Positions 6,385-56,786 of a stretch of DNA of 64,000 bases are shown here, in pieces. The notes beneath the pieces were generated by a model, which was given only the letters and a program-made list of their open reading frames with translations, was not told where the DNA came from and ran no database searches. A program made the position numbers and the translations under genes. Numbering within the stretch: the stretch's first letter is position 1; each line of letters opens with the position of its first letter. Source of the stretch: Candidatus Scatovivens sp. (lineage in GTDB: Bacteria > Bacillota > Clostridia > TANB77 > CAG-508); the NCBI GenBank assembly GCA_045646345.1, contig JAZRKN010000016.1, forward strand, positions 1,693 to 65,692. Direction: 5' to 3'.

Positions 6385-6699
6385 TCAAACAACAGGTATC
6401 ACTTCTTTGGCCAAAAACTCTTTGACCTTTTGCACCAACTCATCTACATGCTCTTCGTCTTCGATTTTAACGGTATATGCGACTATAAGAGTACTGTAAG
6501 AGGCGGTGCCACTTCCACACTCGGTCAATTTGCATCCAATGCTGTCTACAAACTGGCCGAGTTTGGAATTTACAAGTTCTGAAACTTTATGGTCTGGATA
6601 ATTCTTAACAGGTATCATAAACATCCATTTTTGAGATACCAACTTAAGTATATCTACACCCCGTTCCATTGTTTCGAGTTCTCTCCTATCATTCGTCAT
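6385..6699 (-). CDS. hypothetical small protein (104 aa) in a higher-GC cassette
   Basis: ORF 6385-6777 probably starts at MTNDRRELE (ATG at 6699) with RBS aaggagga. Region is about 40-45% GC vs 27% background. Upstream minus-strand promoter ttgtaa-17-tataat. Confidence 0.45.
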   Translation of the reverse strand: MTNDRRELETMERGVDILKLVSQKWMFMIPVKNYPDHKVSELVNSKLGQFVDSIGCKLTECGSGTASYSTLIVAYTVKIEDEEHVDELVQKVKEFLAKEVIPVV

Positions 6700-6972
6700 G
6701 TGCTCTTTTCCTCCTTCACAGTTGTCTATACGAAACAGTAGGAATATAACTACTAATAATGTTATACGTTCAACCATTATATCACACTTAACATAAATTT
6801 ACAATACTTTTATTAAGTAATCTTTCAACTTTGTTCGACAATAAATTTTCCTAGATTGTTCAAACAGTATTTTCTCACAATTATTTTAGCATTATTGTCT
6901 TCAAATATCTTTATTTTAAAGCTATTTTATGGTATTATTATAATTAACATTTATAATAAAAGGAATTTAGTT

Positions 6973-9309
6973 ATGAATTTAAAATCTTTAGAAAAATTAG
7001 AATTTAATAAAATCTGTAATATTTTAAAATCTTATACCATCACTTATATAGGTATGGATTTAGCAGAGAATTTAAAACCTTTATCTACAAAAAGAGAAAT
7101 AGAAAAAGCTCAAAAACAAACAACTGAAGCTTCTACTCTTTTATATAGAAAAGGTTCTATTCCTGTATCTGAAATTGAAGATATTACCCCACACATAAAA
7201 AAATTAAACAGTAATTTATTTCTTTCAATAAAACAATTATTAGATTTAAAGAAAATATTAAATACATCTTCAAAACTAAAAGATTACTTCACATCTACAG
7301 AAATAGATATGTCTGAATTTGTAAATCTTGAAGGTTTATTTAGCAATTTATATATAAATCCATCAATTGAAAAAGAACTTGAAAAATCAATTATTGATGA
7401 AAACACATTATCAGATGACGCTTCTAGTGAATTAAAAAATATCAGAAAATCTATACGTTCTAAAGAACAAGAAATTAGAAATAAATTAAATTCATTCTTA
7501 AATTCAAAATATGTTCAAGAAGGAATTATAACAATGCGAAATGGTCGTTTTGTTATTCCAGTAAAAAATGAACATCGCCAAGATGTAAAAGGATTTATTC
7601 ACGACATTTCATCAAGTGGTTCTACTGTATTTATTGAACCTATATCAATTTTTGATTTAAACAATGATTTGAATAATTTAAAAAATGAAGAAATTATTGA
7701 AATAGAGAAAATTCTACAAAAACTATCATCTTTATTTTTTAATATTATTCCTAATATAGAAAATAGTGTCAATTTAATTGGTCTTATTGATTTTATTTTT
7801 GCAAAAGCAAAATATTCAAATAATTTAGATGCAACTGAACCAATTATAAATGATGATAAATATATAAATTTATTAAATGCATGGCATCCTTTATTAAACA
7901 AGAATCAAGCTGTAAAAAATAATATTCCAATCGGAAAAAATTATAATTGTTTAATTATAACTGGACCAAATACTGGTGGTAAGACTGTAACTTTAAAAAC
8001 TGCTGGTTTATTAATGCTTATGGCAATGAGTGGACTTCATATTACTGCAAAAGAAGGAAGTAGTATTTTTATTGCTGATAATATTTTTGCTGATATTGGT
8101 GACGACCAAAGTATTGCTGATTCTTTAAGTACATTCTCTTCTCATATGACAAATATAGCAAATATTTTAAAAGAAGCTACTGAAAATAGTTTTATTTTAA
8201 TTGATGAATTAGGTTCTGGAACAGATCCAGTTGAAGGTTCTAGTTTAGCAATAAGTATTTTAGAAAAACTAAATTCACTAAAAGCCTTAACTTTATCTAC
8301 AACTCATTATCCTGAAATAAAACATTTTGCTTTAGTAACAGATGGGTTTGAAAACGCAAGTGTTGAATTTAATATAGAAACCCTATCTCCTACTTATAAA
8401 TTATTATTAGGAGTTCCTGGTACAAGTAACGCATTTGCTATTAGCAGAAAACTTGGAATATCTGAAGACATTATCAATAGAGCAAAAGAATTTATTGATT
8501 CTGATAAAATTAATATTGAAGATCTATTAACTACTATTTATGAAGATAAACGTACAATTGAACTTGAAAAGCAAAAAACATTAGACAATTCAAAAGATAT
8601 TGAAAAATTAAAACAATCTCTTGAATTTGATGTATCAAAATTAAAACAAGAACAAAAAGAAATCATAAACAAAGCCAAAGACGAAGCACGTAATATATTG
8701 ATTTCTGCAAAAGAAGATGCAAATGATATTATAAAAGAACTTGAAAAATCTTCTAGCAATAAAGAATCAAATAAATTAAGAAATAAATTAAACGAAAAAA
8801 TAGATAAATTAAGTGTTGTAAATAAATCAGAAGCAACTAGTAATTCCATTTCTATTAATGATTTAACCCCTGGTGTTACTGTTTGGGTTAGCAAAATAAA
8901 TCAAGAAGGAACTGTTTTATCTATTTCAAAAGAAAAAAAAGTTCAAGTCTCTCTTGGACTTGGAAAAATGTTCTTTGATATTTCCGATTTAGAACTAATA
9001 AAAAATTCCACAAAAAAAGAAATTTCAAAAGACTATTCATCTAGAAAAGAATTTAAAGCTAAAGCTATCGCTTCTGAAATAAATGTAATTGGACAAAATG
9101 TTGATGAAGCTTGCTTAGTTATTGATAAATATTTAGATAATTGCTATTTAAATGGATTAGCAACAACTAGAATTGTTCATGGAAAAGGTACTGGAGCTTT
9201 AAGAAATGGTATTCACAAATTCTTAAAAACTCACCCACATGTAAAATCATTTAGAGTAGGTACATTTGGCGAAGGTGAAATGGGAGTTACGATTGTTGAA
9301 TTAAAATAA
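6973..9309 (+). CDS. mutS2: endonuclease MutS2 (MutS domain plus C-terminal Smr)
   Basis: Walker A GPNTGGKT and C-terminal Smr motif VHGKGTGALR. Likely true start MNLKSLEKLEF at 6973 rather than the 6856 ORF start. Confidence 0.9.
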   Translation: MNLKSLEKLEFNKICNILKSYTITYIGMDLAENLKPLSTKREIEKAQKQTTEASTLLYRKGSIPVSEIEDITPHIKKLNSNLFLSIKQLLDLKKILNTSSKLKDYFTSTEIDMSEFVNLEGLFSNLYINPSIEKELEKSIIDENTLSDDASSELKNIRKSIRSKEQEIRNKLNSFLNSKYVQEGIITMRNGRFVIPVKNEHRQDVKGFIHDISSSGSTVFIEPISIFDLNNDLNNLKNEEIIEIEKILQKLSSLFFNIIPNIENSVNLIGLIDFIFAKAKYSNNLDATEPIINDDKYINLLNAWHPLLNKNQAVKNNIPIGKNYNCLIITGPNTGGKTVTLKTAGLLMLMAMSGLHITAKEGSSIFIADNIFADIGDDQSIADSLSTFSSHMTNIANILKEATENSFILIDELGSGTDPVEGSSLAISILEKLNSLKALTLSTTHYPEIKHFALVTDGFENASVEFNIETLSPTYKLLLGVPGTSNAFAISRKLGISEDIINRAKEFIDSDKINIEDLLTTIYEDKRTIELEKQKTLDNSKDIEKLKQSLEFDVSKLKQEQKEIINKAKDEARNILISAKEDANDIIKELEKSSSNKESNKLRNKLNEKIDKLSVVNKSEATSNSISINDLTPGVTVWVSKINQEGTVLSISKEKKVQVSLGLGKMFFDISDLELIKNSTKKEISKDYSSRKEFKAKAIASEINVIGQNVDEACLVIDKYLDNCYLNGLATTRIVHGKGTGALRNGIHKFLKTHPHVKSFRVGTFGEGEMGVTIVELK

Positions 9310-9314
9310 GTATA

Positions 9315-9352
9315 CAAAAAAATCTGAGCAAAAACTTGCTCAGATTTTTTAT
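9315..9352. terminator. bidirectional intrinsic terminator between mutS2 and lexA
   Basis: stem tctgagcaa/ttgctcaga flanked by A- and T-runs. Confidence 0.7.
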
Positions 9353-9370
9353 TTATAGTAAAATTTGGAC

Positions 9371-10214: not shown

Positions 10215-11498
<1,284 letters not shown>

Positions 11499-12744: not shown

Positions 12745-12774
12745 TTGACATTTTATGTTAATTTATGTTATAAT
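12745..12774 (+). promoter_or_regulatory. near-consensus sigma-A promoter (TTGACA-17-TTATAAT) driving the GC-rich ORF
   Basis: ttgacattttatgttaatttatgttataat, divergent from and 6 bp away from the trpS promoter. Confidence 0.65.
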
Positions 12775-12906
12775 TAAATAGTTAACATAGTTATCAACAG
12801 TATGAGTCAAACTCGACTAACCTATAAGGTGCCCAGCCTTACACGAAAAACTATAATAATCTGGGAACGAAAGTATAGACTTCTATACCGTAGGGAAAGG
12901 AAAGAC

Positions 12907-13443
12907 ATGATTATTTTCATCACCAAGGTCCCTCAGGAATTCCGTGTTAACGAAACAATCAAATCATGCTTCACCGGCCGGTTCCTTCAGACCAAAATCC
13001 GTGACGAAGTAGTTTTGTCTCAGCCCGCACAATTGGGAAATGCATTTTATATCCAACCGCAAGGATTAGATAAAGTTCCCGTTGTCACCAGAGCTGAACT
13101 TCCTGCCAGCAGGGGCGCCAAAATAGCATGGGCTTTGTCTTTTATCGGTGACGATAAATGTATGACCACCGAAGCAAGTTTCTATGAAAACTATGACAAG
13201 CTGGTTAAGCAGGATATCATTACCAATATCGCTGCTTTCACCAAGTTTGGTCAGTACGCAATCGTCCTCGCAGACAAAACTATGTTCAATGTATCCCTTG
13301 GCAAAAACAAGATTAAGAAAAATAACCCTGTGCTTGCATGGATCTCTGATGACATCACTCTCGAGAGTTTACATGAACTTCTCGAAAGATATGAAAGTCG
13401 TAAGAAAATTCCCTGCAGCAAAGAATTTTTCTATCTCTTGTAA
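12907..13443 (+). CDS. hypothetical protein (178 aa) in a higher-GC cassette
   Basis: ORF 12802-13443; probable start MIIFITK at 12907 with RBS ggaaaggaaag. About 45% GC, distinct from flanks; own promoter and GC-rich terminator. Confidence 0.5.
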   Translation: MIIFITKVPQEFRVNETIKSCFTGRFLQTKIRDEVVLSQPAQLGNAFYIQPQGLDKVPVVTRAELPASRGAKIAWALSFIGDDKCMTTEASFYENYDKLVKQDIITNIAAFTKFGQYAIVLADKTMFNVSLGKNKIKKNNPVLAWISDDITLESLHELLERYESRKKIPCSKEFFYLL

Positions 13444-13447
13444 TCAA

Positions 13448-13486
13448 AAAGCACGCATCCTGAAAAAGGATGCGTGCTTTTTATTT
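13448..13486. terminator. strong GC-rich bidirectional terminator
   Basis: stem aagcacgcatcc/ggatgcgtgctt with A-run before and T-run after. Confidence 0.8.
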
Positions 13487-29840: not shown

Positions 29841-30028
29841 TTTAATTTCCTCCTTAAATTTTGTTTTTTTCCTCCATAGATTTCCACATTTTAGACAACT
29901 ATTGTTAAAACAATAGCACAATCTAAAACTCAATCTATGTGTGTTATTATATAACTCTGACATTATACCAGCTTTTTTCCTTAATTGCAAGTGTTTTTTA
30001 GATTTATTTTACATATTTTATTGTTTTA

Positions 30029-30068
30029 TAAAAAAGAATGGGAGCTAGCGCAACTTACACTAGCTCCC
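30029..30068 (-). terminator. GC-rich intrinsic terminator downstream of paralog A
   Basis: stem gggagctag/ctagctccc followed on the minus strand by a U-run. Confidence 0.7.
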
Positions 30069-30080
30069 ACAATCCAAATA

Positions 30081-31193
30081 TCACCAAATTGTCGTTTCAA
30101 CAGCTCTTTCACTGTTTCTCACACCCCTTGCCAAAAGATCCCACAGATCAAATGCCAGCAAGGAAGTTCTGATGTTGGCCTTACCGTAGCGGTAGTCAAC
30201 AAAGATCAGACAATTTTTTTCCCAAATCTGGCGGTGATTATCAGGATTCACACGGTCTCTGCGATGTTCACCGATTTTGGTGTAGGTCATCATCTGGTTG
30301 GTAATAAAGTCGTGCTTATATACCACGTCGATGATACCTTCTTCCTGACACATAGCCTCGAAAACACCCTTTGCAAATGCGTGAATGTCTCGAGAACCAG
30401 CAGAAAGCGAACGAGTTCTTCCGTATCCCTTATCCAGGATACTTACTTGCTTGCTGTGCTTCAGCTTAGCAAAGTTAGGATAAGCCACCATTGCATTCTT
30501 ATAGATTTTTCTCAACAGCACGGCTTCAGAGCCGCTGATGTGAGCATAACCATGAACATGCAGGGTGTCGAAGAAGTACTTCAGAAAACGATTCAGATTG
30601 TCGAAACACTCCATATCGTCGCGAGCCATCTTCAGTTCTTTCTCCAGTTCTTTGCTGCAGCGAGATTCAGTAGCCGGATCCTTTGCAGTCACTTCCAGCA
30701 CTTTCACTTCGAGCACATTCTTTTCAGGATTGAAGTAGAACAGCACTTTAGCCTTAGCCTTAGGCTTTTTTACCTCAACTTCCTTAGGTTCTCTGCTAGG
30801 AACCATGGTAGTTTTTCCGTCGTTCACAACAACCTTGTTCACAACGACGTATTCGGTCTTAACTTCCTTCACTTTTGCTTTGGTTGCCAGGTATACAACA
30901 TTGCCCAACACCTCGTTGTCCATGTTGACACCATCATTGGTCGTGATTTTCTTACCGGAAGCCTTCTTCGAGGATTTTTCCTCATTCTTCTGGTATTTCA
31001 TTCTCTCCCAGCTGCATCCGGTTCCCAAAAAACCACTCAGAAAACTCCGCTGATGAGCTTCGGTCATGATCGCATTTCGTTCTTCGGAGGACAAACCTCT
31101 AAATTTACGCAGCTCCTGACCATTGCCATCAAGAACCTTTCCCAAAAACTCGGGACTGACTGTTACCTTAATATCATTCTTCTTAATATCCAT
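30081..31193 (-). CDS. hypothetical protein, paralog A of a tandem pair (370 aa)
   Basis: About 45-48% GC. C-terminal roughly 170 aa is homologous to the downstream neighbour. Shared motifs: EAV, YPxFAKL, KGxxRxR, FAxxxFExM, VYKxD, IRTSxxxFDLW. Own promoter and terminator. Confidence 0.5.
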   Translation of the reverse strand: MDIKKNDIKVTVSPEFLGKVLDGNGQELRKFRGLSSEERNAIMTEAHQRSFLSGFLGTGCSWERMKYQKNEEKSSKKASGKKITTNDGVNMDNEVLGNVVYLATKAKVKEVKTEYVVVNKVVVNDGKTTMVPSREPKEVEVKKPKAKAKVLFYFNPEKNVLEVKVLEVTAKDPATESRCSKELEKELKMARDDMECFDNLNRFLKYFFDTLHVHGYAHISGSEAVLLRKIYKNAMVAYPNFAKLKHSKQVSILDKGYGRTRSLSAGSRDIHAFAKGVFEAMCQEEGIIDVVYKHDFITNQMMTYTKIGEHRRDRVNPDNHRQIWEKNCLIFVDYRYGKANIRTSLLAFDLWDLLARGVRNSERAVETTIW

Positions 31194-31266
31194 GTTGCAT
31201 TTCTCCTCCTGTATATGTAGAATTTAAGGTTTACAAGTTTCAATTAAAGCACAATGCTTCAATTAT

Positions 31267-31295
31267 ATTATAACACAAAGTCATATTTTCGTCAA
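31267..31295 (-). promoter_or_regulatory. near-consensus sigma-A promoter (TTGACG-17-TATAAT) for paralog A
   Basis: minus-strand reading ttgacgaaaatatgactttgtgttataat. Confidence 0.6.
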
Positions 31296-31352
31296 ACAAA
31301 TCTTGTATAAAAAATTACCACTAGTATAACCTGAGTTTTACTCTAAAATTAA

Positions 31353-31388
31353 GAAAAACGGAGACATACTCATGTCTCCGTTTTTTAA
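31353..31388. terminator. bidirectional intrinsic terminator after paralog B
   Basis: stem aacggagacat/atgtctccgtt with A/T runs on both sides. Confidence 0.75.
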
Positions 31389-31398
31389 TCCATTTCAG

Positions 31399-33313: not shown

Positions 33314-33852
33314 CCTTCGTACCCTTTCTTTATTTTATTTTTTTCTGAACTTTTTTTATAATAGTATAATTTCTTGGCTTTTTCAACATAATTAATCATA
33401 CAGAATTCGACTATTTTCGAGCTTTTTGAATTTTTTTAATTATACAAATTTATAAAAAAAATCCTTATTTTGTTTGTTGCTTTAAGCAAAAACAAAACAG
33501 GATTAGAATAGCATATTGAAATCGATTTGTGTAAAAAAGTGTTGAAAAGTAACGAATTATTTTTTCTCAAACCCGCAAAACCTTGAAAATACTGTATCGA
33601 TTTTTAAACTTTTTTCAAAAACTAAAAGTTTTTTTGTAAAAATTTAGCACAAAATCAACAAAACACCATTTTTCGCCACCACATCTATAAGTTTTATAAT
33701 CTCCCTGATATAAAAATCTAAAATTTGCACTTCGCAAATTTAGAAGTTCGCTTCATCTTCTCCAATCTCTAAATTCAGAGTGGAAAAAAGAAGCAGTACA
33801 GAAAATTTAGCAGCCCATCAACACAAGTCAAAACAAAATGGAGGTATGACAA

Positions 33853-34335
33853 ATGTACAAACTCAAGAAAATCTTTGCCATGGTATTGGCACTCGCACTT
33901 GCTTTCAGTTTCTCAACTGTAGCATTTGCAGCAGAGGAATCTGGTATTCCTGAAAACGCAACTCGTCACACAATCGAAGTAACAGTTGAACCTGGTGAAA
34001 ATGACATTGCACCTTATATCTGGGGGCAAGGAACCTACAATCCTCCCGTTAACGGTGCAACTTATACTGCATCTTTCACAACCCCTCACAGATACATGGC
34101 TTATGAAATCCGCGGTATCAAAAGCGATGGTTCTACTACAGGATTAACTTATCAAGTATCTTTGCTTTATTCATTAACCATGTCTTCAGTTTCTTCAATT
34201 ACACGAGCTGTTGATGGTAACACCTATAAAATGGATTGGGTAGATGTAGAAGCTAACGATAACTATTTATTTAAAATCCAAAATTATACTGGAACCCCCA
34301 TAAACGTTACAATTACTTATTACACTTGGGCATAA
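33853..34335 (+). CDS. small secreted protein (signal peptide, 160 aa), unknown function
   Basis: N-terminal signal peptide ending AFA-AEE. About 40% GC. RBS aatggaggt. Confidence 0.5.
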   Translation: MYKLKKIFAMVLALALAFSFSTVAFAAEESGIPENATRHTIEVTVEPGENDIAPYIWGQGTYNPPVNGATYTASFTTPHRYMAYEIRGIKSDGSTTGLTYQVSLLYSLTMSSVSSITRAVDGNTYKMDWVDVEANDNYLFKIQNYTGTPINVTITYYTWA

Positions 34336-34346
34336 CTTTTCTGATA

Positions 34347-34378
34347 AAAGAGGCTAGATCACTCTAGCCTCTTTTTAT
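34347..34378. terminator. bidirectional intrinsic terminator
   Basis: stem agaggctaga/tctagcctct followed by T-run. Confidence 0.75.
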
Positions 34379-35043
34379 AGATATATTTCTATATTTCCAC
34401 ATTTTTTTATTACTTCTTTATTCGATATAATATTCAAATAATCAATTTTTACTTTTATATTATCTTGACTATAAAAACTATTAAATTCTAAAACATAAAT
34501 ATACGTTTTTTTATCAATTCGTTTTCCATATTTCGAAATTTCATTAATTTTTAAATCTATATTTTCTTCAAAAATAACATTTCCATTTATCTTATCTACT
34601 AATTTTATATTATCAAAATAAACTTTATCAAATTCCTCTTCACATCTAACATTAAATGCAATGCAAAGTTTGTCTTCTTCTTGAATAATATAATCTACTT
34701 TGATTCCAACACCATCATGTTCAACATATTCCATGTCTATTTCTTTGTAATTACCGTTTGCAATAGCCTCTTCTATTTGTTTATCTGTATTTGAGAAAAT
34801 ATTAGTTACTAAACTTTCTATTTCATCAGCAAATACTCCTAAACTTGAAATTAAAAAGATAACACAAGCAAATGTTGCAATAAGCTTTTTGGAAAAAAGA
34901 ACAGTTCTTGTTTTTTCTTTAATGTCTGGTTTGTTTAATTCTTCTTTCATTTTTATCTTTAAATTTTGTTTAAATTCATCTCTTAATTTTACTTCATTAA
35001 GTTCATTTTTTATTTCTTCTAATTCTTTATTAAATTCTTCCAT
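34375..35043 (-). CDS. putative anti-sigma factor (single-pass membrane protein)
   Basis: 222 aa; N-terminal cytoplasmic coiled region, one TM (LIATFACVIFLISSLGVFA), extracytoplasmic C-domain. Overlaps the sigma gene by 14 nt. Confidence 0.5.
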   Translation of the reverse strand: MEEFNKELEEIKNELNEVKLRDEFKQNLKIKMKEELNKPDIKEKTRTVLFSKKLIATFACVIFLISSLGVFADEIESLVTNIFSNTDKQIEEAIANGNYKEIDMEYVEHDGVGIKVDYIIQEEDKLCIAFNVRCEEEFDKVYFDNIKLVDKINGNVIFEENIDLKINEISKYGKRIDKKTYIYVLEFNSFYSQDNIKVKIDYLNIISNKEVIKKCGNIEIYL

Positions 35044-41209: not shown

Positions 41210-42004
41210 TTAAATTTTTTCGTATTCAACAATTTTCAGCCCTTGCTTTAAAGAACTAGCGTGTGAACAAAACAATCCAATTTCTTTACATTCATTACTA
41301 TAAACTTGAGAAGCTAGTGGAACAACTCCATCCCCTTTCAAATTCATTATTTTGTTTGCCATATACAATACTAAATCAGTTAAATTCTTGCAATCAAATA
41401 TTACTCTAAAACACGAAATTATATTAAGATGTTTTACACAAACCGGTTTGGTTAAATTCTCGATAAATTCCGAGTTAGTCGCGATATCTCTATCGACCTT
41501 ATGATCGCTAAATATCATATTATAAATTGCAATATAAAACTTGTTTTTTAATCTTGCTTCTACCATTTTCTTTTCTGCAATAACGGTACCATAAAAAGGT
41601 GTCGATATCGTCACAAGATATATTGGTTGTAAGCAAAAATAACTAGCATTTGTCAAACAAACTCCACATTTTGAATGTCCAACTAAAATGAGTTTTTCAT
41701 ACACCTCATATTGTTCATTTACAAACTCTGAAATTTCATAGCTCGATATTTCGAGCCCATCACATTCGAATGTGAAATAAAAAGCATATACAGTATGTTC
41801 CTTACTTATCTCAGGTTTAAACTCTTTCATAAGCGGATCATGCTTGATTACTCTATTTTCATCATCCAAACTCAGAGAATGTCCATTTCCAATTATATAG
41901 CACCTTTCATTTTTGGTGCCTTTTTGAATCTGTTGGACTATTATATTGTCTGTTTTATACACAACTCCAGCCAAATGCTGATTTTTTAAAATATACCGTT
42001 TCAT
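41210..42004 (-). CDS. alpha/beta-hydrolase, lipase/esterase-like (GHSxG)
   Basis: nucleophile elbow LVGHSKCGV; about 264 aa. Confidence 0.55.
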   Translation of the reverse strand: MKRYILKNQHLAGVVYKTDNIIVQQIQKGTKNERCYIIGNGHSLSLDDENRVIKHDPLMKEFKPEISKEHTVYAFYFTFECDGLEISSYEISEFVNEQYEVYEKLILVGHSKCGVCLTNASYFCLQPIYLVTISTPFYGTVIAEKKMVEARLKNKFYIAIYNMIFSDHKVDRDIATNSEFIENLTKPVCVKHLNIISCFRVIFDCKNLTDLVLYMANKIMNLKGDGVVPLASQVYSNECKEIGLFCSHASSLKQGLKIVEYEKI

Positions 42005-42052
42005 AAAAAGTCTCCTTAACATTTGACTACGGTTGTTTACGAGTTACCAGTT

Positions 42053-42078
42053 TTAGGAGGACTGAAAATCAGTCCTCC
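42053..42078. other. GC-rich hairpin aggaggactg-aaaa-cagtcctcc at a cassette boundary
   Basis: perfect 10-bp stem. T-run only on the plus side although both flanking genes are on the minus strand. Confidence 0.5.
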
Positions 42079-42113
42079 CTTTTCATACTAATATTCAGTT
42101 GTTTTTTTCCTTT

Positions 42114-43097
42114 TTACAGGCATTGTTCAAAAGAGAGATCGTCACAAAGTGCTTCTGCCAAATACATACAAGTATCAGACACTTCATCCAGAACATCTTT
42201 CGGAATTTCAGCATCCTCTCTGGCATTTTCAGCATGCTTAATGTACTCGATTACAGGAGCTTCCAGCATATCTACCATGCTTCTGTCTTTTTCGTACAGC
42301 ATCTTTGAAACGAGCAGGGATTCATCAGGAGTACCAACTTCACCATAAAGAACAGTCTGATCATCTTCATCCATTCCGAACAGGAATCTGGTTTTTACCA
42401 GTAAAACTCCAGCTTCTTCATATTTCTTTGCCAACTCAGTATAAATAAACTCACAAAGCATTCTGAGATGCTCAATGTAATGAGTAGCACTATTATGAAG
42501 TGATGCCCTTTCCAGCAGTTCGATTTCTTCTTCAGTGTCAAAATCTTCTGCATACTGTATATCTGCAAGAGAAATATCTACTAATTCGAATGCCTCATCC
42601 ACGGTTTCACACTCTATCATAGCTTCATAATTTTCGCTACAATAGTCGTTTTCGTAAAACCACTCTACCAAGAGTCTAATAGCTTCCTTTTTGCAAATTT
42701 CTTTGCCTTCTTCAGAATAGAAAATAACTTCAGGTACACAAAGCTTGTCTTTCTTTCCGGTCTCTTCGTAACCATTTACGATAAAATCCACAGGAAAAAC
42801 AGACAGAGGCTTAAGCAACATTACTGTTCCTCTCTTCTCTTCAGAGATACCATACTTCTTCCACAGTTCTGGAGTACTGACGATATGGTCTGTCAGTAAC
42901 TCAAACTCAGTCTCCAAAAACCTCTTATTACTCTCGGAAAGAGCAACCGTAAGGTTCGGCTTCATCAGGATTCCATCAACTACCGGTCTATCGGCAATCG
43001 ACAAAATACTGCTTGCCTCGTAGATGATGAGTTCAGGATTTTCCTCTTCAGAAATAACAACCTGATCATCAAAAGGGATCGTTGCATTCTCGCTCAT
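42114..43097 (-). CDS. hypothetical highly acidic cytoplasmic protein (about 327 aa) in a higher-GC cassette
   Basis: About 42% GC. Start MSENATIPF with RBS aaaggtgg. Upstream promoter TTGCAA-17-TATACT. Confidence 0.45.
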   Translation of the reverse strand: MSENATIPFDDQVVISEEENPELIIYEASSILSIADRPVVDGILMKPNLTVALSESNKRFLETEFELLTDHIVSTPELWKKYGISEEKRGTVMLLKPLSVFPVDFIVNGYEETGKKDKLCVPEVIFYSEEGKEICKKEAIRLLVEWFYENDYCSENYEAMIECETVDEAFELVDISLADIQYAEDFDTEEEIELLERASLHNSATHYIEHLRMLCEFIYTELAKKYEEAGVLLVKTRFLFGMDEDDQTVLYGEVGTPDESLLVSKMLYEKDRSMVDMLEAPVIEYIKHAENAREDAEIPKDVLDEVSDTCMYLAEALCDDLSFEQCL

Positions 43098-43221
43098 TGT
43101 GTTCTTACCACCTTTCAATTTTCTTAGTATTACTTTATTTCCACATTTAATTAGTCAATTTTTTGCAGGAAATAAGTGAATACAGGCTATAGTATACTAC
43201 ATTTCAAGCATAATTGCAACA

Positions 43222-43260
43222 CAAAAGAGCCGCACCACACTTGGTGCGACTCTTTTGCTT
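43222..43260. terminator. GC-rich intrinsic terminator
   Basis: stem gagccgcacc/ggtgcgactc followed by T-run. Confidence 0.7.
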
Positions 43261-43266
43261 GAAAAA

Positions 43267-43860
43267 TCACGAATTGTCGTACGCCTTGTCACTATAGTAC
43301 GAACAGAAAAGCATCAGTACAGTCGTATGATCGAGAGGACAATCTTCGCTAATTCTCACATCAAAATCCTTAAACAGCACAAACGAATTGTATTCTGCAA
43401 TAAGATTGTTTTCTGTATCAACTAGTTTTCCAGAAGTGTCAAAATAATTGAAGCTTGCCATGCCAATCTTTTGTCCAGCACCATCATAAATGTCATAAGT
43501 GTTGCCAAACAAATCAAATTTGCCTACCATTTCAGCCGTTACTACTCCATTTACAATAATTGCATGAGAGTCCTGAGAAATAAAATGGTAATCATCGCCC
43601 GCATACGCTTTCTTGTTACCTTCAAGGTCTTTCATTGTAAGCGGATCTTCTACAACCCTAAAAATGTTTCCGCTAACTTTGCAGATGTCTTCTCCTCCCG
43701 TGCTGATTTCGATATCAGTAGAAAGCCGAAAGTTCTTAACATCACAGTCATACTTGGTATGAGGACCGATTTTGGATCCAGAAAAAACAGTTCCCAAAAT
43801 CACGATTGCCACAAGAAAAATTATGAGTGCTTTTACTTTTGTCCGAGTAACATTTTTCAT
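43267..43860 (-). CDS. hypothetical membrane-anchored protein (197 aa), beta-rich extracytoplasmic domain
   Basis: N-terminal TM (ALIIFLVAIVILGTVF); about 45% GC. Confidence 0.45.
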   Translation of the reverse strand: MKNVTRTKVKALIIFLVAIVILGTVFSGSKIGPHTKYDCDVKNFRLSTDIEISTGGEDICKVSGNIFRVVEDPLTMKDLEGNKKAYAGDDYHFISQDSHAIIVNGVVTAEMVGKFDLFGNTYDIYDGAGQKIGMASFNYFDTSGKLVDTENNLIAEYNSFVLFKDFDVRISEDCPLDHTTVLMLFCSYYSDKAYDNS

Positions 43861-46616: not shown

Positions 46617-47246
46617 ATGAACATACGGCTTTTAGACAGTATCCCACTGATTTCAAACAAGACAAAAATCAAAATTAGCATTTCACTTCTTATCTTCGCA
46701 TTTTTCGTTTGCATTTTTCGTTCTGGCAGCATTGATAGTAAGATTTGTCTCGTCGCCATGTTTTTTTCAAGCCTAGGTGATATCGCACTTAACTGTAAAC
46801 CAATCGAAAAACGTTCTCATACCCTTTTATATATTGGGGCGTTTTTCTTCATGATAGCACATCTCATTTACGCATCTGCATATTATTTACTTATCCAAGG
46901 AGCATCTCTTTCTTTTGCAAATCCTGGTATGTATATAGCAATGAGTATTATGATTTTGATTTTTATAGTTTCTGTAATCAGTATTCGTAAAGGAAAAAAA
47001 TCAATGAAACTTTCTATGATTTTTGTCTTTATGATGTATATGATAATGATTTCTATAAATTTTATAACTATCTATTCTTACAGTTGGAATTTTAAAGCAA
47101 TCTCATTTATAGGCGCAACTTCATTCTTGATTTCAGATTATATCATTGGAATTGAAACTGTCTTCAAGATTAAAAGTAACTTGTTAAGAAAACTGGTTTG
47201 GATTTTTTATCCTATTGGGCAAATTCTAATAATCTTTTGTCGATAA
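46617..47246 (+). CDS. YhhN-family (lysoplasmalogenase-like) membrane protein
   Basis: multi-TM; FFSSLGDIAL motif characteristic of YhhN. Confidence 0.6.
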   Translation: MNIRLLDSIPLISNKTKIKISISLLIFAFFVCIFRSGSIDSKICLVAMFFSSLGDIALNCKPIEKRSHTLLYIGAFFFMIAHLIYASAYYLLIQGASLSFANPGMYIAMSIMILIFIVSVISIRKGKKSMKLSMIFVFMMYMIMISINFITIYSYSWNFKAISFIGATSFLISDYIIGIETVFKIKSNLLRKLVWIFYPIGQILIIFCR

Positions 47247-48591: not shown

Positions 48592-49335
48592 TTATTTTTC
48601 TACATTTCTAAATCTTTGAAGGAAATCCTTAGTTTCTTCTTTTTGTGGATTTACAAAAATATCTTCTGAAGTTCCTTCTTCAAGTATTATACCATTATGC
48701 ATAAACACAACATGATTTGATATCTCTTTTGCAAAAGCCATTTCATGAGTAACTATAATCATTGTAAACCCTTCTTTTGCTAAAGTTTTTATAACTGATA
48801 GTACTTCTCCAACCATTTGTGGATCTAATGCCGATGTTGGTTCATCAAATAGTAGCACTTCTGGCTGCATTGCTAATGCTCTTGCTATTGCAACTCTTTG
48901 TTTTTGACCTCCGGATAATTGTTTTGGCTTAGCATTTATAAAAGGTGTCATTCCTACTTTTTCTAAGAAAAATAAAGCTTTTTCTTTTGCTTCATTTTTA
49001 CTTATTTTTAACACTTTTTCTAACCCAATCATACAATTTTGAAGAACATTCATATTCTCAAAAAGATTAAAATTTTGAAATACCATACCTACTTTTGTTC
49101 TGTAATTTGGAATATCTTTTGAGTCTAAAATATTTTCTCCATTAAAAAGAATCTCTCCTCCACTTGGAGTTTCCAATAAATTAATACATCTTAAAAGAGT
49201 AGATTTACCTGATCCTGATGCTCCAATTATTGAAGTTATATCACCTTTTTTTACTGAAAAATCTATATCTTTTAAAACTTCGTGGCTGCCAAAATTTTTA
49301 ATTAAATGTTTAATTTCAATAATTTTCTCACTCAT
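48592..49335 (-). CDS. polar amino acid ABC transporter ATP-binding protein (GlnQ/TcyC-like)
   Basis: Walker [10 protein letters not shown], signature [14 protein letters not shown], Walker [12 protein letters not shown]. Confidence 0.95.
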
Positions 49336-49336
49336 T

Positions 49337-50131
49337 TTATTCTACCTCCTTTTTTGAAGGATATTTTAAAAGTCCACTAGTATAAGCTAATGTATCAGTT
49401 GTTGAAAGAGAATAATCTTCTGGACCATTTAATTTATTTTCAACTATTCTTAATAATTTTGAACAAGTTACGGTCATAAATAAATACATTATCATTGTAA
49501 CTGTATATGCTTCAAAATATGTATAATAAGTTCCTGCTACAGACTTTGTAGCAAAAAATAATTCTACTGTTCCAATTACAGAAAGTACACAAGTATCTTT
49601 TATATTAATTATTAAGTTATTTCCTATTTGAGGCATTATATTTCTTGTTGCTTGAGGAAGTATTATATAAAGCATTGTTTGGAAATGATTCATACCAATT
49701 GCTTTTGCACCTTCTGTTTGTCCATCAGATATTGATAGTATTCCTCCCCTTACAGTTTCAGCCATATATGCTCCTGTATTTATTGAAACTATAAAAAATG
49801 CAGCAAACCACATACTCATATTAATTTCAAAAACAACAGCAGAACCATAATATATAAACATTGCTTGAACCATCATTGGAGTTCCTCTAAAAACCTCCAC
49901 ATAAATATCCATTATTGCTTTTAATGTTTTTAAAAATATTTTCTTAAATAAATTATCTCTTTTGGAAACCGGTATTGTTTGTATAATTCCAACAACAAAT
50001 CCAATTAAACAACCTATAATTGTACCAACTAATGCAATTAATAATGTTGTCCCAGCACCTTTTAAAAGAGAAGTTCCATATTTTTGAATAATAAATATAA
50101 TTCTTCCTAAAAAGTCTTGTGGTAAACTCAT
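49337..50131 (-). CDS. polar amino acid ABC transporter permease
   Basis: HisM/GlnP-type permease with EAA-like loop. Confidence 0.9.
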
Positions 50132-50150
50132 TTTTTATTCTTCCTTTCTT

Positions 50151-51014
50151 TTATTCAGATAATGGTTGAACACTAATTGCAGTATTCATCATTTCTTCAA
50201 AATCTGTTGTATCAAGTTCAGCTAATGCTGTATTTAATTCGTTTAATAATTCTGTATTTCCTTTTTTCACTGAAATACCAATATTTATTTCTTCTTCTGA
50301 AACATTAAAATTATCATTTTCAGAATTTGTAAAATCTAATAATTTAAAATCTGGATAAACTTTTGTTGCAGCCATTGCTGTTGGCATATCTGTTACAACT
50401 AAATCTGTTTTTCCTGAATCTAATGCTACTAACATTTGTGACGCAACTTCCATTGCTGGTAAAATATTTGCATTTTTAATTTGAGGTAAGCACACATCAT
50501 ACCAAACTGTATTTATTTGTGAAGTACATGTAGCACCTTCTAAATCACTAACTCCAGTTGCATCTGCATATTCACTATCATTTTTTGTTAATCCTACGAT
50601 TGAAGCATAATAATATGGTGTAGTAAAATCAACTGTTTGTAATCTTTCTGAAGTAATTGATTGACCAGCTATAACACAATCAATTTTGTTTGATTGAAGC
50701 GCTACTGGTAAACTATCCCAATCAATTTGATAAATTTCTAATTCATATCCTAATTTTTCTGCTAAAAATTTTGCTACCATTACATCATATCCATAAGCAT
50801 ATTCTGAACTTCCTGCTATTGGAACAGCTCCGTTTGATGTATCTGATTGTGCCCAGTTATATGGTGCATATGCACACTCCATACCAACTCTTAATACTTT
50901 TGTTTCTTCACCTTCATTTGTGTCTACTGTTTGGTTTTGGCATCCTGTAAGAGTTACTAATCCAATAACCAATAAAATTAAAGTAATACTTAAGTTTCTT
51001 AAAATGTTTCTCAT
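50151..51014 (-). CDS. amino acid ABC transporter substrate-binding lipoprotein
   Basis: lipobox LTGCQ; SBP_bac_3-like. Probable start MRNILRNLS at 51014 with RBS GGAGGG. Confidence 0.85.
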   Translation of the reverse strand: MRNILRNLSITLILLVIGLVTLTGCQNQTVDTNEGEETKVLRVGMECAYAPYNWAQSDTSNGAVPIAGSSEYAYGYDVMVAKFLAEKLGYELEIYQIDWDSLPVALQSNKIDCVIAGQSITSERLQTVDFTTPYYYASIVGLTKNDSEYADATGVSDLEGATCTSQINTVWYDVCLPQIKNANILPAMEVASQMLVALDSGKTDLVVTDMPTAMAATKVYPDFKLLDFTNSENDNFNVSEEEINIGISVKKGNTELLNELNTALAELDTTDFEEMMNTAISVQPLSE

Positions 51015-51400
51015 AATAAAACCCTCCACTAAATTTATTTTTAAATATCTGTTAATGATTAGTGGAATTTTATGTTTGTAAAACAAAAAATTCGTGAATG
51101 ACTACTTACATAGAACATTCACGAACACAATAATTTACATATCAAAATAAAGATATATTAAATATATCATTCGATTCTAGATAGCGCTCCACATAAGTGA
51201 CAGTTCGTTACATATTTTGCAACGTCCCAGCAATATTTATTTAGACGATAAATATAACTTCGGCAACATTTCCTTTCAAGCAAATATAGGAGTCTATTCC
51301 ACTTAATTTACTTTACTCTTAAACATCGCGACCTCTACCAATAGTCATTGGGGTTACCAATAACAGATTATTTAATTGTTTTTAAGTTTAGCATAGATTT
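51015..51400 (-). ncRNA. candidate structured cis-regulatory leader (riboswitch or attenuator) of the amino-acid ABC operon
   Basis: Roughly 330-nt 5' UTR, noticeably GC-enriched for this genome. Promoter TTGACA-17-TAAACT near 51380-51410. Terminates in a hairpin ttcgtgaatg-N15-cattcacgaa (51091-51125) followed by a U-run just before the RBS. Confidence 0.45.
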
Positions 51401-51512: not shown

Positions 51513-52274
51513 TTGGAGAATGCGAAAATGTCATTATTAGGAATCGTTCGGGATCAACATCTATTACTGCTCTTTGCAGTACAATTTGTAACCTCATTTT
51601 GCTTTATCTACTATGGGAAAAATAAACTCAGCTTTATTTCAGAAATCTTACTAATAATAAGCTGTGTTTTATACCATAAAACACCATTTAACTTGGACAT
51701 ACTACATTGCTATATTGCTGAATATATTTTACTGAAACTTTCTCTTGTTTTGATTGTATATATCGCAAAACGCTTTGCTTTTTTCATTTTGGTAGTAATA
51801 ACCCATAAAGAAAAATACAAAAAAGCGTATAAATTTCTTGTAAAAAAGAAACGTTTTTTGCGATTCCAATCACGCATATGGAATAAAGTAAAATACGGCA
51901 TTAGAATCAAAAAGGGTATTCCATCGATGGTAAACAAAAGAAATGCTCAGCACGGAATTTCTTTTGATAGTGATGGTTTCCCAAAGTTCAAAGTCATCAC
52001 TGAGGTTTACATAGATTCGTGTTATTGGAAAAAAAGCCGAGATGTACATTTTTATCAAGCAAATCGGCAATTATATACTCGAATCAAAAAATACTCTAAA
52101 CTTTCCAAAAAATTTACCAAAAACGAAATCAAAGAATTCAAGCAAGGAAATACTCCTAAAAAATATACTTGGCATCATCACCAAGATAAAGGATTGTTAC
52201 AGCTTGTCGATTCTGAAATTCATGCAAAAGTTCGTCATAATGGTGGATTTTCGATTTGGGGCCCAAGAGAATAA
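51513..52274 (+). CDS. ORF ending in a WHH-type HNH/EndoVII nuclease toxin domain; N-terminal part probably degenerate (orphan toxin module)
   Basis: C-terminus KKYTWHHHQDKGLLQLVDSEIHAKVRHNGGFSIWG matches the WHH nuclease signature (W-HH ... H ... H-GG). N-terminal 130 aa is low-complexity hydrophobic and may not be translated. Alternative start MVNKRNAQHG at 51927. Confidence 0.55.
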   Translation: MENAKMSLLGIVRDQHLLLLFAVQFVTSFCFIYYGKNKLSFISEILLIISCVLYHKTPFNLDILHCYIAEYILLKLSLVLIVYIAKRFAFFILVVITHKEKYKKAYKFLVKKKRFLRFQSRIWNKVKYGIRIKKGIPSMVNKRNAQHGISFDSDGFPKFKVITEVYIDSCYWKKSRDVHFYQANRQLYTRIKKYSKLSKKFTKNEIKEFKQGNTPKKYTWHHHQDKGLLQLVDSEIHAKVRHNGGFSIWGPRE

Positions 52275-52276
52275 CA

Positions 52277-52310
52277 AAAAACCTCCGGTTATACGGAGGT
52301 TTTCTTTTAA
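52277..52310 (+). terminator. intrinsic terminator
   Basis: stem aaaacctccg/cggaggtttt followed by T-run. Confidence 0.75.
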
Positions 52311-52358
52311 ATTAAACAGGGACAGCTTATCTGCTGTCCCTTCGTTTATTTTCGAGAA

Positions 52359-53333
52359 TTATCTCTTAATCATTATTCCGCTTCCACTTGATTTAATAGT
52401 AGTCTCATCAAAATCTTCAATCAACCACATCGCTTTGCTAATTTCAATCTGCTCTTCATTAAGATTGAAACTTCTGCAATATGCCGTTGCGATTTCCTGA
52501 ATCAAGAAATGAAAAACTTCAGGCGCCTGCATATACAGTTCATTGCTTTGAATCATGCAAATTAGATATGCGTTAAGCTGATATGCAATACTGGTTTCAG
52601 CAGGAACTTTTGCCTTAGGATAGATTGCATCTTTCAGTACTTCATTGATATGATCTTCCAGAAGGAAATCTTCATCCATAATGCTTCTGGTCACCAGTTC
52701 AGGGTTTGCAAAAATCATCTGCTGACCAATCATCGCAGCATAGAGATATGCACTATTATTACAAGGATATCCCATCCAGCTTACCAATCTCAGATTTACA
52801 GCTTCTGTAATGGTTTCATAAAGTCCCCAATACATATCAGTATCGTATTCAATACCAAGCATATGAACTACTTCATGACACCAAGTAAAAGGAAAATATT
52901 CAGGCAGATTTTCATAGAGATTTTTGTTTACATAGACAACATTACTTCCAGGCTTATGATAGCCCATCAGCACATTGTCAGAAACACCAATGAGTTTCGT
53001 CTCTACAGAATTGATTTTTTCGGTAACATCAATTCCATATTCGATCTGGAAATATTCAATTACCTTTTCCTTTAATCCTCTAATGTACTCTTTATCAGGA
53101 TTGCAGATTTCGACATTAGACGAATCGATCAAAGAATTAATGTACTCTTTTTCATCCCAAATCATATTTTCTTCAGGAATATCTACAGAGTCACTCTCTT
53201 CCATAAAGAAGAATTCTGCCAGTGTAATTTCCTTATTGGTAGGATCATAGAGATTATCCCTTTTTACTCCACATCCCACCAAAGTGGTCATGAGCATAAC
53301 TACAACCAAAATCATAGCAAAAATTTTTTTCAT
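52359..53333 (-). CDS. lipoprotein with HExxH zinc-metallopeptidase motif
   Basis: lipobox LVGCG; HEVVHMLG; about 40% GC. Confidence 0.55.
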   Translation of the reverse strand: MKKIFAMILVVVMLMTTLVGCGVKRDNLYDPTNKEITLAEFFFMEESDSVDIPEENMIWDEKEYINSLIDSSNVEICNPDKEYIRGLKEKVIEYFQIEYGIDVTEKINSVETKLIGVSDNVLMGYHKPGSNVVYVNKNLYENLPEYFPFTWCHEVVHMLGIEYDTDMYWGLYETITEAVNLRLVSWMGYPCNNSAYLYAAMIGQQMIFANPELVTRSIMDEDFLLEDHINEVLKDAIYPKAKVPAETSIAYQLNAYLICMIQSNELYMQAPEVFHFLIQEIATAYCRSFNLNEEQIEISKAMWLIEDFDETTIKSSGSGIMIKR

Positions 53334-53589: not shown

Positions 53590-53630
53590 GCTATTGAATT
53601 TTACTTCAACAGCGATTTTTATTAATTATA
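53590..53630 (-). terminator. intrinsic terminator after the surface-protein gene
   Basis: stem atcgct...agcgat with U-run on the minus strand. Confidence 0.6.
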
Positions 53631-53633
53631 ATT

Positions 53634-56006: not shown

Positions 56007-56099
56007 TATTCACCAATCTATTTTATTCTTAGAGTCAGTATATCATATAATTTTTATTTTGAGGATTTTGTTACCAAAATGTATTAATTCTTACTTACA

Positions 56100-56128
56100 T
56101 TGAATTTTTAAGCATTTTATGTTATAAT
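56100..56128 (+). promoter_or_regulatory. near-consensus sigma-A promoter TTGAAT-17-TATAAT
   Basis: ttgaatttttaagcattttatgttataat upstream of the 56181 ORF. Confidence 0.6.
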
Positions 56129-56180
56129 AGAAATGCAGTTTATATATTTTTTGCATCAAAGCCAATTGGGAGGTGTTAAT

Positions 56181-56786
56181 ATGGCATACAACAGTCTTGA
56201 TTTACGAAAAAAACTGTCTATTGAGGAGTACTATCGGTTCTCTCAACGGTTAGCATATGAATATGCTACCACTTCAGCATCAACTGCTGTTACCGCGCTT
56301 ACTGAAAAATATGATGTTACAAAAAGCGCATTTTACACATTGCTGGAATTTGCTATAACTCATCATTTGGTTTCTGATAAAGTTGTCCAATCGATTCGAG
56401 AAAAGCTTGTTTCCAATCTTGCAGCTCATGGTTGCAAAGGTTACAAAAGCAATGTGAAATACAATCAGTTAACAGCAAAAAGAGACAATTTTTCCGCATT
56501 CCAAAAAAAGGATATTGAGTATATTGCAAAATATTACGCTATGCATCCTGAGGAATCCAAGCAGGAAGTCACAGCTCGTTTTCATTTCTATAGTCCCAAA
56601 GTATTGAATCGACTTTTGAAACGGGCTTGTATGGAATTAATCATCACAGACAAAATTTTCAATATGCTTCGTCAAAGAGCAATCGATAATGCAGTAGATC
56701 TTGATTACACAATCAATTTCTTTTGCGAGCTTGCTCGTTATCGCGACAAAGCAAAACAAATCAAGAAAAGCCAATCTGCATTCTAA
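56181..56786 (+). CDS. hypothetical protein (201 aa) in a higher-GC cassette
   Basis: start MAYNSLDLRKK with RBS gggaggtg; about 40% GC; followed by a bidirectional terminator at 56805-56845. Confidence 0.5.
   Translation: MAYNSLDLRKKLSIEEYYRFSQRLAYEYATTSASTAVTALTEKYDVTKSAFYTLLEFAITHHLVSDKVVQSIREKLVSNLAAHGCKGYKSNVKYNQLTAKRDNFSAFQKKDIEYIAKYYAMHPEESKQEVTARFHFYSPKVLNRLLKRACMELIITDKIFNMLRQRAIDNAVDLDYTINFFCELARYRDKAKQIKKSQSAF

Follow-up and report, generated by a model that had tools for sequence, protein, structure and literature searches.

We analysed a 64,000-nucleotide stretch of the genome of Candidatus Scatovivens sp. (contig JAZRKN010000016.1), hereafter the window, in which nine open reading frames (ORFs), hereafter the cassettes, are markedly richer in GC than their surroundings. 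The cassettes are the ORFs of eight intervals that an initial annotation, made from the sequence alone, had singled out; one of these intervals (30081-32292) holds two paralogous genes, par1 (30081-31193) and par2 (31399-32292). The cassettes sit at fixed chromosomal positions and are vertically inherited together with their AT-rich neighbours, and they are an old class with no recent insertions among them. Our reading, to which we assign a probability of about one half, is that they represent a second, long-lived compositional class of genes, the composition of which is held by a gene-specific force, probably selection.

A class of genes rich in GC at third codon positions

Overall GC content of the window was 27.6%, and the sliding GC profile rose at all eight places to values of 0.36-0.45, each rise coinciding with one or more ORFs; the 40-48% GC initially assigned to the intervals is somewhat high, and 35-45% is accurate. 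The nine listed ORFs have a GC content of 0.35-0.45 and a GC content at third codon positions (GC3) of 0.29-0.50, whereas about 38 other genes of the window, including rpsB, tsf, carAB, trpS, obg, lexA and mutS2, have a GC3 of 0.09-0.18. The contrast between cassettes and backbone genes lies mainly at third codon positions, and the GC3 distribution is bimodal.

Cassettes of the window, with coding sequence, strand, product, composition and signals:
c6385, 6385-6699 (- strand): 104 aa, no known domain; GC 0.39, GC3 0.37; sliding GC 0.36-0.375 at 6200-6800; promoter TTGTAA-17-TATAAT with a TGTGA extension at 6804-6776; terminator hairpin at 6351-6321.
c12907, 12907-13443 (+ strand): 178 aa; GC3 0.46; sliding GC 0.43 at 12800-13400; whole unit 12745-13482; perfect promoter TTGACA-18-TATAAT at 12745-12774; 16-bp terminator at 13446-13482, which convergently serves cadA too.
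par1, 30081-31193 (- strand): 370 aa; GC3 0.50; no TTA, CTA or TCA codons; sliding GC 0.42-0.45 at 30000-31200; promoter TTGACG-17-TATAAT at 31295-31267; terminator at 30070-30038.
par2, 31399-32292 (- strand): 297 aa, paralogue of par1; GC3 0.37; sliding GC 0.36-0.385 at 31400-32200; promoter TTGAAT-17-TATAAT at 32388-32360; terminator at 31385-31354.
sec160, 33853-34335 (+ strand): 160 aa with N-terminal signal peptide; GC 0.39, GC3 0.29; sliding GC 0.36-0.40 at 33800-34400; GC-rich hairpin and then a T run read from the sequence just 3' of the gene; no consensus sigma-A promoter read upstream.
c42114, 42114-43097 (- strand): 327 aa, acidic; GC3 0.37; sliding GC 0.36-0.40 at 42000-43800, a stretch that reaches into the next cassette; promoter TTGCAA-17-TATACT at 43219-43191.
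c43267, 43267-43860 (- strand): 197 aa with N-terminal membrane anchor; GC3 0.35; extended -10 promoter at 43941-43913; terminator hairpin at ~43231-43262.
c52359, 52359-53333 (- strand): 324-aa lipoprotein with an HExxH motif; GC3 0.33; sliding GC 0.365-0.378 at 52200-53000; perfect (12/12) promoter TTGACA-17-TATAAT at 53565-53537, followed by a ~195-nt leader; two terminator hairpins at 52341-52318 and 52305-52276.
c56181, 56181-56786 (+ strand): 201 aa; GC3 0.31; sliding GC 0.365 at 56200-56800; promoter TTGAAT-17-TATAAT at 56100-56128; terminator at 56805-56834.

Beyond the initial list, three further genes of the window fall into the class, with a GC3 of 0.26-0.30:
41210-42022 (- strand): 270 aa; GC3 0.26.
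46617-47246 (+ strand): YhhN-family membrane protein (PF07947); GC3 0.30; promoter TTGACT-17-TATAAT.
51513-52274 (+ strand): toxin gene with a membrane-anchored product; GC3 0.28; convergent with c52359.

Conservation and vertical inheritance

Relatives were metagenome contigs (L001-L100) of uncultured gut Clostridia near Candidatus Scatovivens, a taxon listed as Clostridiaceae incertae sedis in the NCBI taxonomy; in GTDB the lineages belong to order TANB77, family CAG-508. TrpS of the window is 95-96% identical to that of metagenome-assembled genomes labelled Candidatus Scatovivens sp., "Clostridia bacterium" and "uncultured Lachnospiraceae", identity dropping to ~85% for Clostridium sp. CAG:245 and for numerous further uncultured Clostridia of the gut, and an AT-rich composition is common to all the TrpS-related lineages. 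All nine listed genes have syntenic orthologues in relatives, at 32-98% amino-acid identity (down to 28% for c12907) and with the same GC3 offset, their neighbours lying at ~0.1, which speaks against the repeated small insertions originally proposed, if these are taken as recent events. The initial annotation had named an identical composition in related genomes as grounds for giving up its proposal, taking this to mean that the GC elevation reflects protein composition only; the same composition is indeed conserved, which refutes the proposal on its own terms, but the excess lies in GC3 and the explanation by protein composition is wrong.

The most complete comparison was obtained around par1 and par2, where the gene order in the recovered contigs is extracytoplasmic function (ECF) sigma factor, DUF4179, sec160, AgrC-like kinase, par2 and par1, then rpsB, tsf and carAB where the contig reaches them. 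Synteny of par1, par2 and sec160 is kept in L001, L003, L005 and L088, the short L088 contig spanning sec160 to par1 only, and in L089 the pair par2-par1 has other surroundings downstream. GC3 of the orthologues in L001, L003, L005 and L088 is 0.445-0.577 for par1, 0.34-0.49 for par2 and 0.17-0.37 for sec160, and the kinase situated between sec160 and par2 has a GC3 of ~0.125-0.14 in every lineage; for L088, the most divergent, the values are 0.37 (sec160), 0.14 (kinase), 0.475 (par2) and 0.577 (par1). Identity matrices gave the same branching for par2 and the low-GC3 kinase, and par1 concurs in having L089 and L088 outermost, as is expected from vertical co-divergence.

Other cassettes behave in the same manner. 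Syntenic orthologues in L092 have a GC3 of 0.36 for c42114 and of 0.39 for c43267 (79% identical), next to a GH77 gene at 0.11, and the YhhN gene is found at 0.29 in L092 and 0.34 in L095, its neighbouring GH77 gene at 0.11-0.13. The c56181 orthologue in L100 is 80% identical (GC3 0.30) and the toxin gene orthologue in L099 is 85% identical (GC3 0.26); beside the latter, the c52359 slot is occupied by two tandem paralogues with 48% and 56% identity and a GC3 of 0.33 each. Orthologues of c12907 are located between cadA and trpS in L008-L012 (28-63% identity, GC3 0.25-0.48), as two tandem paralogues in L008. A 48%-identical homologue of c6385 lies beyond mutS2 in L008, and in L009 and L010 TPM/TPM/LemA genes are found beyond mutS2, where the window has c6385.

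In the cadA-trpS slot we also observed a fragment in L012 (8826-10001) and a GC-rich (30-38%) stretch without an ORF in L013 (9300-9700). These remnants are probably decaying copies of c12907 and could serve as neutral references for the speed of GC loss after gene death.

Around trpS the GC3-rich share of genes was 18-29% in the window and the three relatives closest to it, compared with ~1-2% in the family's other genera. Near the sampled loci about one fifth of the genes belong to the GC3-rich class, and in L095 the count was 5 of 17.

Equilibrium composition or a fading donor trace

The cassettes might have been imported from a gene pool of medium or high GC content, either once in the clade ancestor, with amelioration still unfinished, or by repeated replacement, in which case their composition would still reflect the donor. 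An elevated GC content, orphan products and units with a promoter and terminator of their own are indeed classic signs of acquired genes, and the class includes a toxin domain typical of exchanged modules. The most robust comparison was made at synonymous sites within conserved codons, where we scored the G/C-versus-A/T (S/W) state. When the window is compared with L088, par1 has gone 88% and par2 93% of the way to a fully random S/W state, and in the comparison with L095 the YhhN gene has reached 89%; despite this turnover GC3 in these three genes is still 0.28-0.58. Relaxation toward the backbone GC3 of ~0.07 would require an ancestral GC3 above 1 for par1 and par2, which therefore sit at a compositional equilibrium of their own, separate from the backbone, and do not represent unfinished amelioration. 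It likewise speaks against import that par1 and par2 keep a GC3 of 0.37-0.58 where the kinase is 59% identical and the S/W state ~90% randomised, and that the most divergent lineage shows the highest GC3. Four-fold degenerate sites are 74-85% saturated, yet their composition in cassettes is A 0.21-0.30, C 0.10-0.20, G 0.16-0.22 and T 0.36-0.43, as compared to A 0.54-0.70, C 0.01, G 0.05 and T 0.25-0.40 in the backbone.

Two other estimates were made in addition. For the shallow comparison of the window with L001 and L003, a two-state decay calibrated on the backbone puts the required ancestral GC3 at 0.85 to above 1, a value that is model-dependent; this estimate overstated the case and gave way to the randomisation of S/W states in deeply diverged orthologues described above. 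Star-tree parsimony counts of GC-to-AT and AT-to-GC changes were dropped, as at such a degree of turnover parallel GC-to-AT changes mimic AT-to-GC ones and the backbone control shows the artefact.

A donor was searched for with two families, par1 and c42114, among 5.8 billion proteins. The search yielded 14 homologue clusters for par1 (38-96% identity) and 8 for c42114 (37-98% identity), and a profile search with the par1/par2 family matched 89 of 1.84 billion representatives. Both families are tiny and almost clade-restricted, and every genomic context examined was AT-rich, so that neither family points to a donor. The dinucleotide distance (delta*) between cassettes and backbone was 0.086, and backbone samples of matching size gave 0.032; one half of the cassettes differs from the other just as much (0.090), and there is thus no single donor signature. 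The common higher-GC donor envisaged at first does not fit these clade-bound families and their incoherent dinucleotide signature.

Content of the slots varies between species, with the TPM/TPM/LemA genes of L009 and L010 and extra genes in L089, L092 and L095, which import would readily explain, as it would the lesser depletion of CpG in cassettes (relative abundance 0.75) than in backbone genes (0.40, a strong depletion). Alleles are also swapped between strains at sec160 and DUF4179. The stretch with par1, par2, the kinase gene and rpsB is 99% identical between the window and L005, the kinase differing at 1 base, and protein identity drops to 68% for sec160 and to 70% for the DUF4179 anti-sigma factor between window positions 33853-35043 and L005 positions 397-1595. 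Judged from this comparison, recombination has swapped the alleles of the sec160-DUF4179 block, a hypervariable locus for a secreted protein and an anti-sigma factor. The swapped block includes the AT-rich DUF4179 gene, meaning that its donor had the same mosaic composition, and this again counts against a GC-rich source. The cassettes further lack phage, plasmid or viral-contig homologues, and they avoid codons of the form HYA and keep those of the form GNA, which is no plain difference in GC. Altogether we consider import a doubtful explanation, albeit one with a real chance of being true.

A shared codon signature

Although unrelated to each other, the cassettes (par1, par2 and the seven others) share one codon pattern, in which TTA, CTA, ATA, TCA, CCA and ACA are avoided. 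TTA makes up 69% of leucine codons in the backbone and 2-10% in cassettes, where CTA is reduced to 0-2%; likewise ATA falls from 46% to 0-10%, CCA from 65% to 0-6%, TCA from 36% to 1-11% and ACA from 62% to 7-30%, and CTG, TTG, ATC, AAG, CAG, ACC and CCT are increased. Part of this shift is GC-neutral (CCA to CCT, ATA to ATT, TCA to TCT) and GCA and GTA are kept, which argues against plain GC pressure. The signature is kept after synonymous turnover, most strongly in par1, par2 and the YhhN gene.

We compared the pattern with rpsB and tsf as a reference for highly expressed genes. These prefer TTA, TCA, ACA, AGA, AAA, GAA, CAA, GGA, GCT, GTT and, in two-fold boxes, NNC codons. Cassettes oppose this preference in 7 of 8 multi-codon boxes, and it is suggestive that they shun the codons preferred by rpsB and tsf, clearly so for TTA, TCA and ACA. 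Extreme translational optimisation was rejected as an explanation on the same ground, that the cassettes avoid the A-ending codons which rpsB and tsf favour.

A local mutational or repair bias, through GC-biased gene conversion at variable loci that recombine readily or through a bias tied to strong transcription, is a further candidate. It would suit the facts that all three codon positions are affected, that amino acids are not AT-shifted despite fast evolution, that parts of the leaders are also GC-richer, that the loci recombine from strain to strain and that the promoters are strong. The controls within the window are difficult to reconcile with it. The perfect extended -10 promoter also stands in front of three backbone genes whose GC3 is 0.10-0.11, so strong promoters do not explain GC3, nor does high expression, since the highly expressed rpsB and tsf are at 0.12-0.18. 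The DUF4179 gene, which recombines, and an 853-aa gene are equally fast-evolving and recombining and have a GC3 of 0.10-0.11, so that fast evolution and recombination do not explain the cassettes either. GC boundaries track genes to within ~100 bp, which is hard to square with conversion tracts, and the kinase between sec160 and par2 stays at ~0.125 GC3 in all lineages. Nor would a GC bias account for the CCA to CCT and ATA to ATT shifts or the retention of GCA and GTA. GC-biased gene conversion is reportedly able to raise GC3 of recombining bacterial genes, in work of 2015 by Lassalle et al., and the cassettes resemble that case in their higher GC3 in recombining genes against AT-biased mutation. 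They differ from it in a several-fold effect that tracks gene boundaries, in recombining AT-rich neighbours that are unaffected, and in that part of the shift is from A to T. We hold a local bias to be improbable.

On the strand opposite par1 an ORF of 411 codons (29985-31220, + strand) runs codon-opposite to the gene and is open in the window, L005 and L003. It prompted the idea of dual coding, in which GC-rich codons would be retained to keep the antisense frame open, and ~370 open codons at 44% GC are rare by chance; par1 of L088 also lacks the stop-making codons TTA, CTA and TCA. In L001 one stop interrupts the frame and in L089 two TTA codons do so, several such stops occur in other cassettes, and the conservation pattern suits the sense protein. 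Moreover, the avoidance across the class also covers ATA, CCA, ACA and CAA, which are irrelevant to antisense stops. The ORF is open because par1 is free of TTA, CTA and TCA codons; we judged it a by-product of codon usage rather than coding, and dual coding appears hardly credible.

Autonomous units without mobility signatures

The cassettes are discrete autonomous promoter-gene-terminator units. In most of them the gene is preceded by an extended -10 promoter that fits the consensus and by a strong ribosome-binding site, and is closed off by a GC-rich terminator. The motif TRTGNTATAAT occurs 9 times in the window, compared with 1.1 expected from shuffled sequences, and 6 of the 9 are directly upstream of cassettes; loose promoter-like matches in the window were not above chance. 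The same promoter type is used by backbone genes, namely rpsB and the genes at 2473, 39833 and 45008. The six promoters quoted in the initial annotation are all present at the right distance, except that the spacer at 12745-12774 measures 18 nt and not 17; the perfect promoter of c52359 adds a seventh. GC-rich hairpins with a T run follow most cassettes, in agreement with the annotation, terminator-like sites being 3- to 5-fold more frequent than expected from shuffles.

The leader of c12907 (12781-12906, ~125 nt) is conserved far better than the 28-63%-identical protein, and its motif is kept in L008 (5955-5996), L009 (7354-7391), L010 (9774-9811) and L011 (3135-3170). The stretch GGGAACGAAA, a 6-bp hairpin and GTAGGGAAAGG, in the Shine-Dalgarno region, are identical in three lineages, and in L011 pairing of the hairpin is preserved via two compensatory changes. 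Two GGA motifs in this leader, one overlapping the ribosome-binding site, recall what we assume to be CsrA-type binding sites; an Rfam scan of the leader gave no match.

Short direct repeats at the cassette boundaries amounted only to chance-level 11-nt matches, in line with the initial annotation, which had found no flanking repeats, and no shared inverted-repeat element or repeat family was found there. There were no attC-like sites or target-site duplications at the cassettes, no integrase among the window ORFs examined and no mobility gene adjoining any cassette; as to tRNA anchors, the sole tRNA of the window (at 60357) is away from the cassettes. No homologue came up in tblastn searches of phage and plasmid collections with ten cassette proteins joined end to end, in three scans of viral contigs with cassette proteins or in the PADLOC set of defence proteins, and PHROGs gave nothing above noise. 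A profile search of genome contigs with the par1 family alignment had no match. Thus, of the earlier idea of inserted or mobile expression cassettes, the autonomous units, the deviation at synonymous sites, the shared codon pattern and the variable slots stand, whereas recent insertion and mobility do not, in view of the missing integrase, attC-like sites, tRNA anchors and phage or plasmid homologues.

Known systems resemble the cassettes in part. Islets that are compositionally atypical owing to horizontal transfer, and their subsequent amelioration, are the subject of the model of Lawrence and Ochman. Like such islets, the cassettes are single genes or pairs with deviant GC and codons, orphan proteins and variable content at some sites. 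As for a recent islet, the deviation in composition and codons is present here, while absence from the same site in relatives, mobility signatures and donor homologues are not seen in the cassettes, which keep position and composition across deep splits. Decay of composition toward the host is contradicted for par1 and par2, which are at equilibrium; c42114, c43267 and c52359 are compatible with it. The deviation, moreover, is upward in GC in an AT-rich host. From integron gene cassettes they differ by having their own promoters and by lacking attC sites and, among the window ORFs examined, an integrase. Phage morons are autonomous promoter-gene-terminator units with deviant GC inside prophages, and share with the cassettes their anatomy, in which a single gene has its own promoter of the sigma-70 type and an intrinsic terminator and its GC content is unlike that of the flanks. 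Cassette flanks, unlike those of morons, are trpS, cadA, rpsB, kinase, mutS2, GH77 and cation-efflux genes, and PHROG homologues were not found.

Cassette proteins and neighbouring genes

Exact-sequence look-ups of the cassette proteins and TrpS gave no match, and for most cassette proteins Pfam, NCBIfam, PADLOC and PHROGs gave nothing useful. PDB sequence searches had no match for c52359 or for the protein of 41210-42022, and the latter is also without a Pfam match; its GHSxG motif suggests that it may be a hydrolase. The initial view that no protein is recognisable beyond the HExxH lipoprotein was nearly right, the exception being c42114. This protein matches Pfam PF01259 (SAICAR synthetase; E 1.4e-9, 38.6 bits against a gathering cut-off of 20), and its structural model (predicted local distance difference test, pLDDT, 84) has 1obd as the top Foldseek match (E 8.5e-13, 16% identity, template modelling score 0.62-0.67). 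On profile and model, c42114 is predicted to be a divergent protein of the SAICAR synthetase (PurC) fold. Among relatives it has diverged to 52-58% identity, with CarB of the same relatives at 97%, a rate of evolution too fast for, and arguing against, a housekeeping PurC role in the purine pathway.

The products of par1 and par2 share 35% identity over 216 aa (BLASTP). The AlphaFold model of par1 has a pLDDT of 81, and a search of its structural neighbours found no informative fold match. Between the window and L005 (4256-5368), par1 has 15 nucleotide differences, 14 of them amino-acid changing, and 12 of 13 polarisable differences fall on the L005 side, which suggests relaxed or diversifying selection but is not significantly off the neutral expectation (p ~0.09). 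Polarised differences comprise 7 S-to-W and 3 W-to-S changes, from 15 sites only. A diversity-generating retroelement acting on par1 was rejected, as the mutation spectrum is not adenine-specific.

The toxin gene at 51513-52274 encodes a C-terminal Colicin-DNase/WHH nuclease toxin domain (PF12639, 3e-28; PF14414, 1e-16), and no obvious immunity gene was identified for it. Among relatives, many members of the class are secreted or membrane proteins.

The + strand carries 5 of the 12 GC3-rich genes, and nearly all backbone genes of 9300-60000 are on the - strand. A persistent negative GC skew suggests that the - strand is the leading coding strand in this region, and the GC3-rich class seems to be enriched for head-on orientation. 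Outside the class, a CotH-family (spore-coat kinase) gene at 4268-4933 (+ strand) has a slightly raised GC3 of 0.23 and hints at a sporulating organism, and a lysine riboswitch (Rfam RF00168, 107 bits) lies at 51174-51345 (- strand), 5' of an amino-acid ABC transporter operon (48592-51086).

Proposed mechanism and implications

If the cassettes are a second compositional class under gene-specific control, the class would consist of clade-restricted accessory genes, many of them for secreted, lipoprotein or membrane proteins, each presumably transcribed as its own sigma-A unit from a strong extended -10 promoter, with a strong Shine-Dalgarno sequence and an intrinsic terminator. A gene-specific fixation bias would keep the composition, the likeliest being weak selection on message decoding or transcript composition; by avoiding A-ending codons the cassettes might draw on other tRNAs and so not compete with bulk translation. 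The class itself may have begun with an ancient transfer or with invention inside the lineage. Going further, about one fifth of the genes, mostly envelope, secreted and lineage-specific ones, could speak a codon dialect that shuns the A-ending codons favoured in genes of the translation machinery and has been selected over genus-level or deeper divergence, acting as a codon-defined regulon which tRNA availability, modification or cleavage switches or shields from competition with bulk translation. We offer this as speculation and think it rather unlikely to hold in full.

Several observations weigh against the reading of a gene-specific force. The case for equilibrium is strong only for par1 and par2; c42114, c43267 and c52359 are randomised to 75-80%, an ancestral GC3 of 0.5-0.6 suffices for them, and slow amelioration after an old transfer is possible in these three, as import would have it. 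At shallow depth a forward HKY (Hasegawa-Kishino-Yano) model is milder and permits an ancestral GC content at four-fold sites (GC4) of ~0.85. First and second codon positions are also less AT-shifted, which suggests a pressure on nucleotide composition and not purely a matching of codons to tRNAs. The amino-acid composition of cassettes (FYMINK residues 0.33, GARP residues 0.18) is like that of conserved housekeeping proteins and unlike that of equally fast-evolving backbone orphans (0.435 and 0.11), and as amino acids are affected, the pressure reaches beyond synonymous sites. The anti-optimal codon pattern is derived from two reference genes, rpsB and tsf, of ~545 codons in total, with a regression coefficient of just -0.38, and NNC codons are increased in both cassettes and highly expressed genes. 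A tRNA search found none in 16 related loci and one in the window. Finally, few lineages were sampled per locus.

Codon-defined classes of genes are known from other bacteria, such as the TTA/bldA regulon of Streptomyces. In Salmonella, virulence genes were shown experimentally to form a selection-maintained, function-linked codon class that escapes competition with ribosomal-protein codons (Goormaghtigh and Bumann, bioRxiv 10.64898/2026.02.22.707322). The cassettes are similar to both classes in being an accessory subset with a shared synonymous signature that is conserved among relatives and seems to lead away from the codons of ribosomal-protein and other highly expressed genes. They differ from both in being GC-richer in an AT-rich genome, in comprising ~20% of genes near the sampled loci, in that amino acids are affected and in being known here from sequence alone.

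Deviation in GC and codons is routinely read as recent transfer, and its amelioration as a clock; genes such as the cassettes would be misdated or misclassified by this approach. Here, gene-sized GC-rich units in a genome of 27% GC remain GC-rich at conserved sites after synonymous turnover. Should the cause be a local bias of mutation or conversion that respects the limits of genes, this would be unusual in itself. If selection is the cause, its direction would be opposite to that of the AT-rich virulence genes of enterobacteria, and codon choice could partition a bacterial genome into stable expression classes in an abundant uncultured lineage of the gut.

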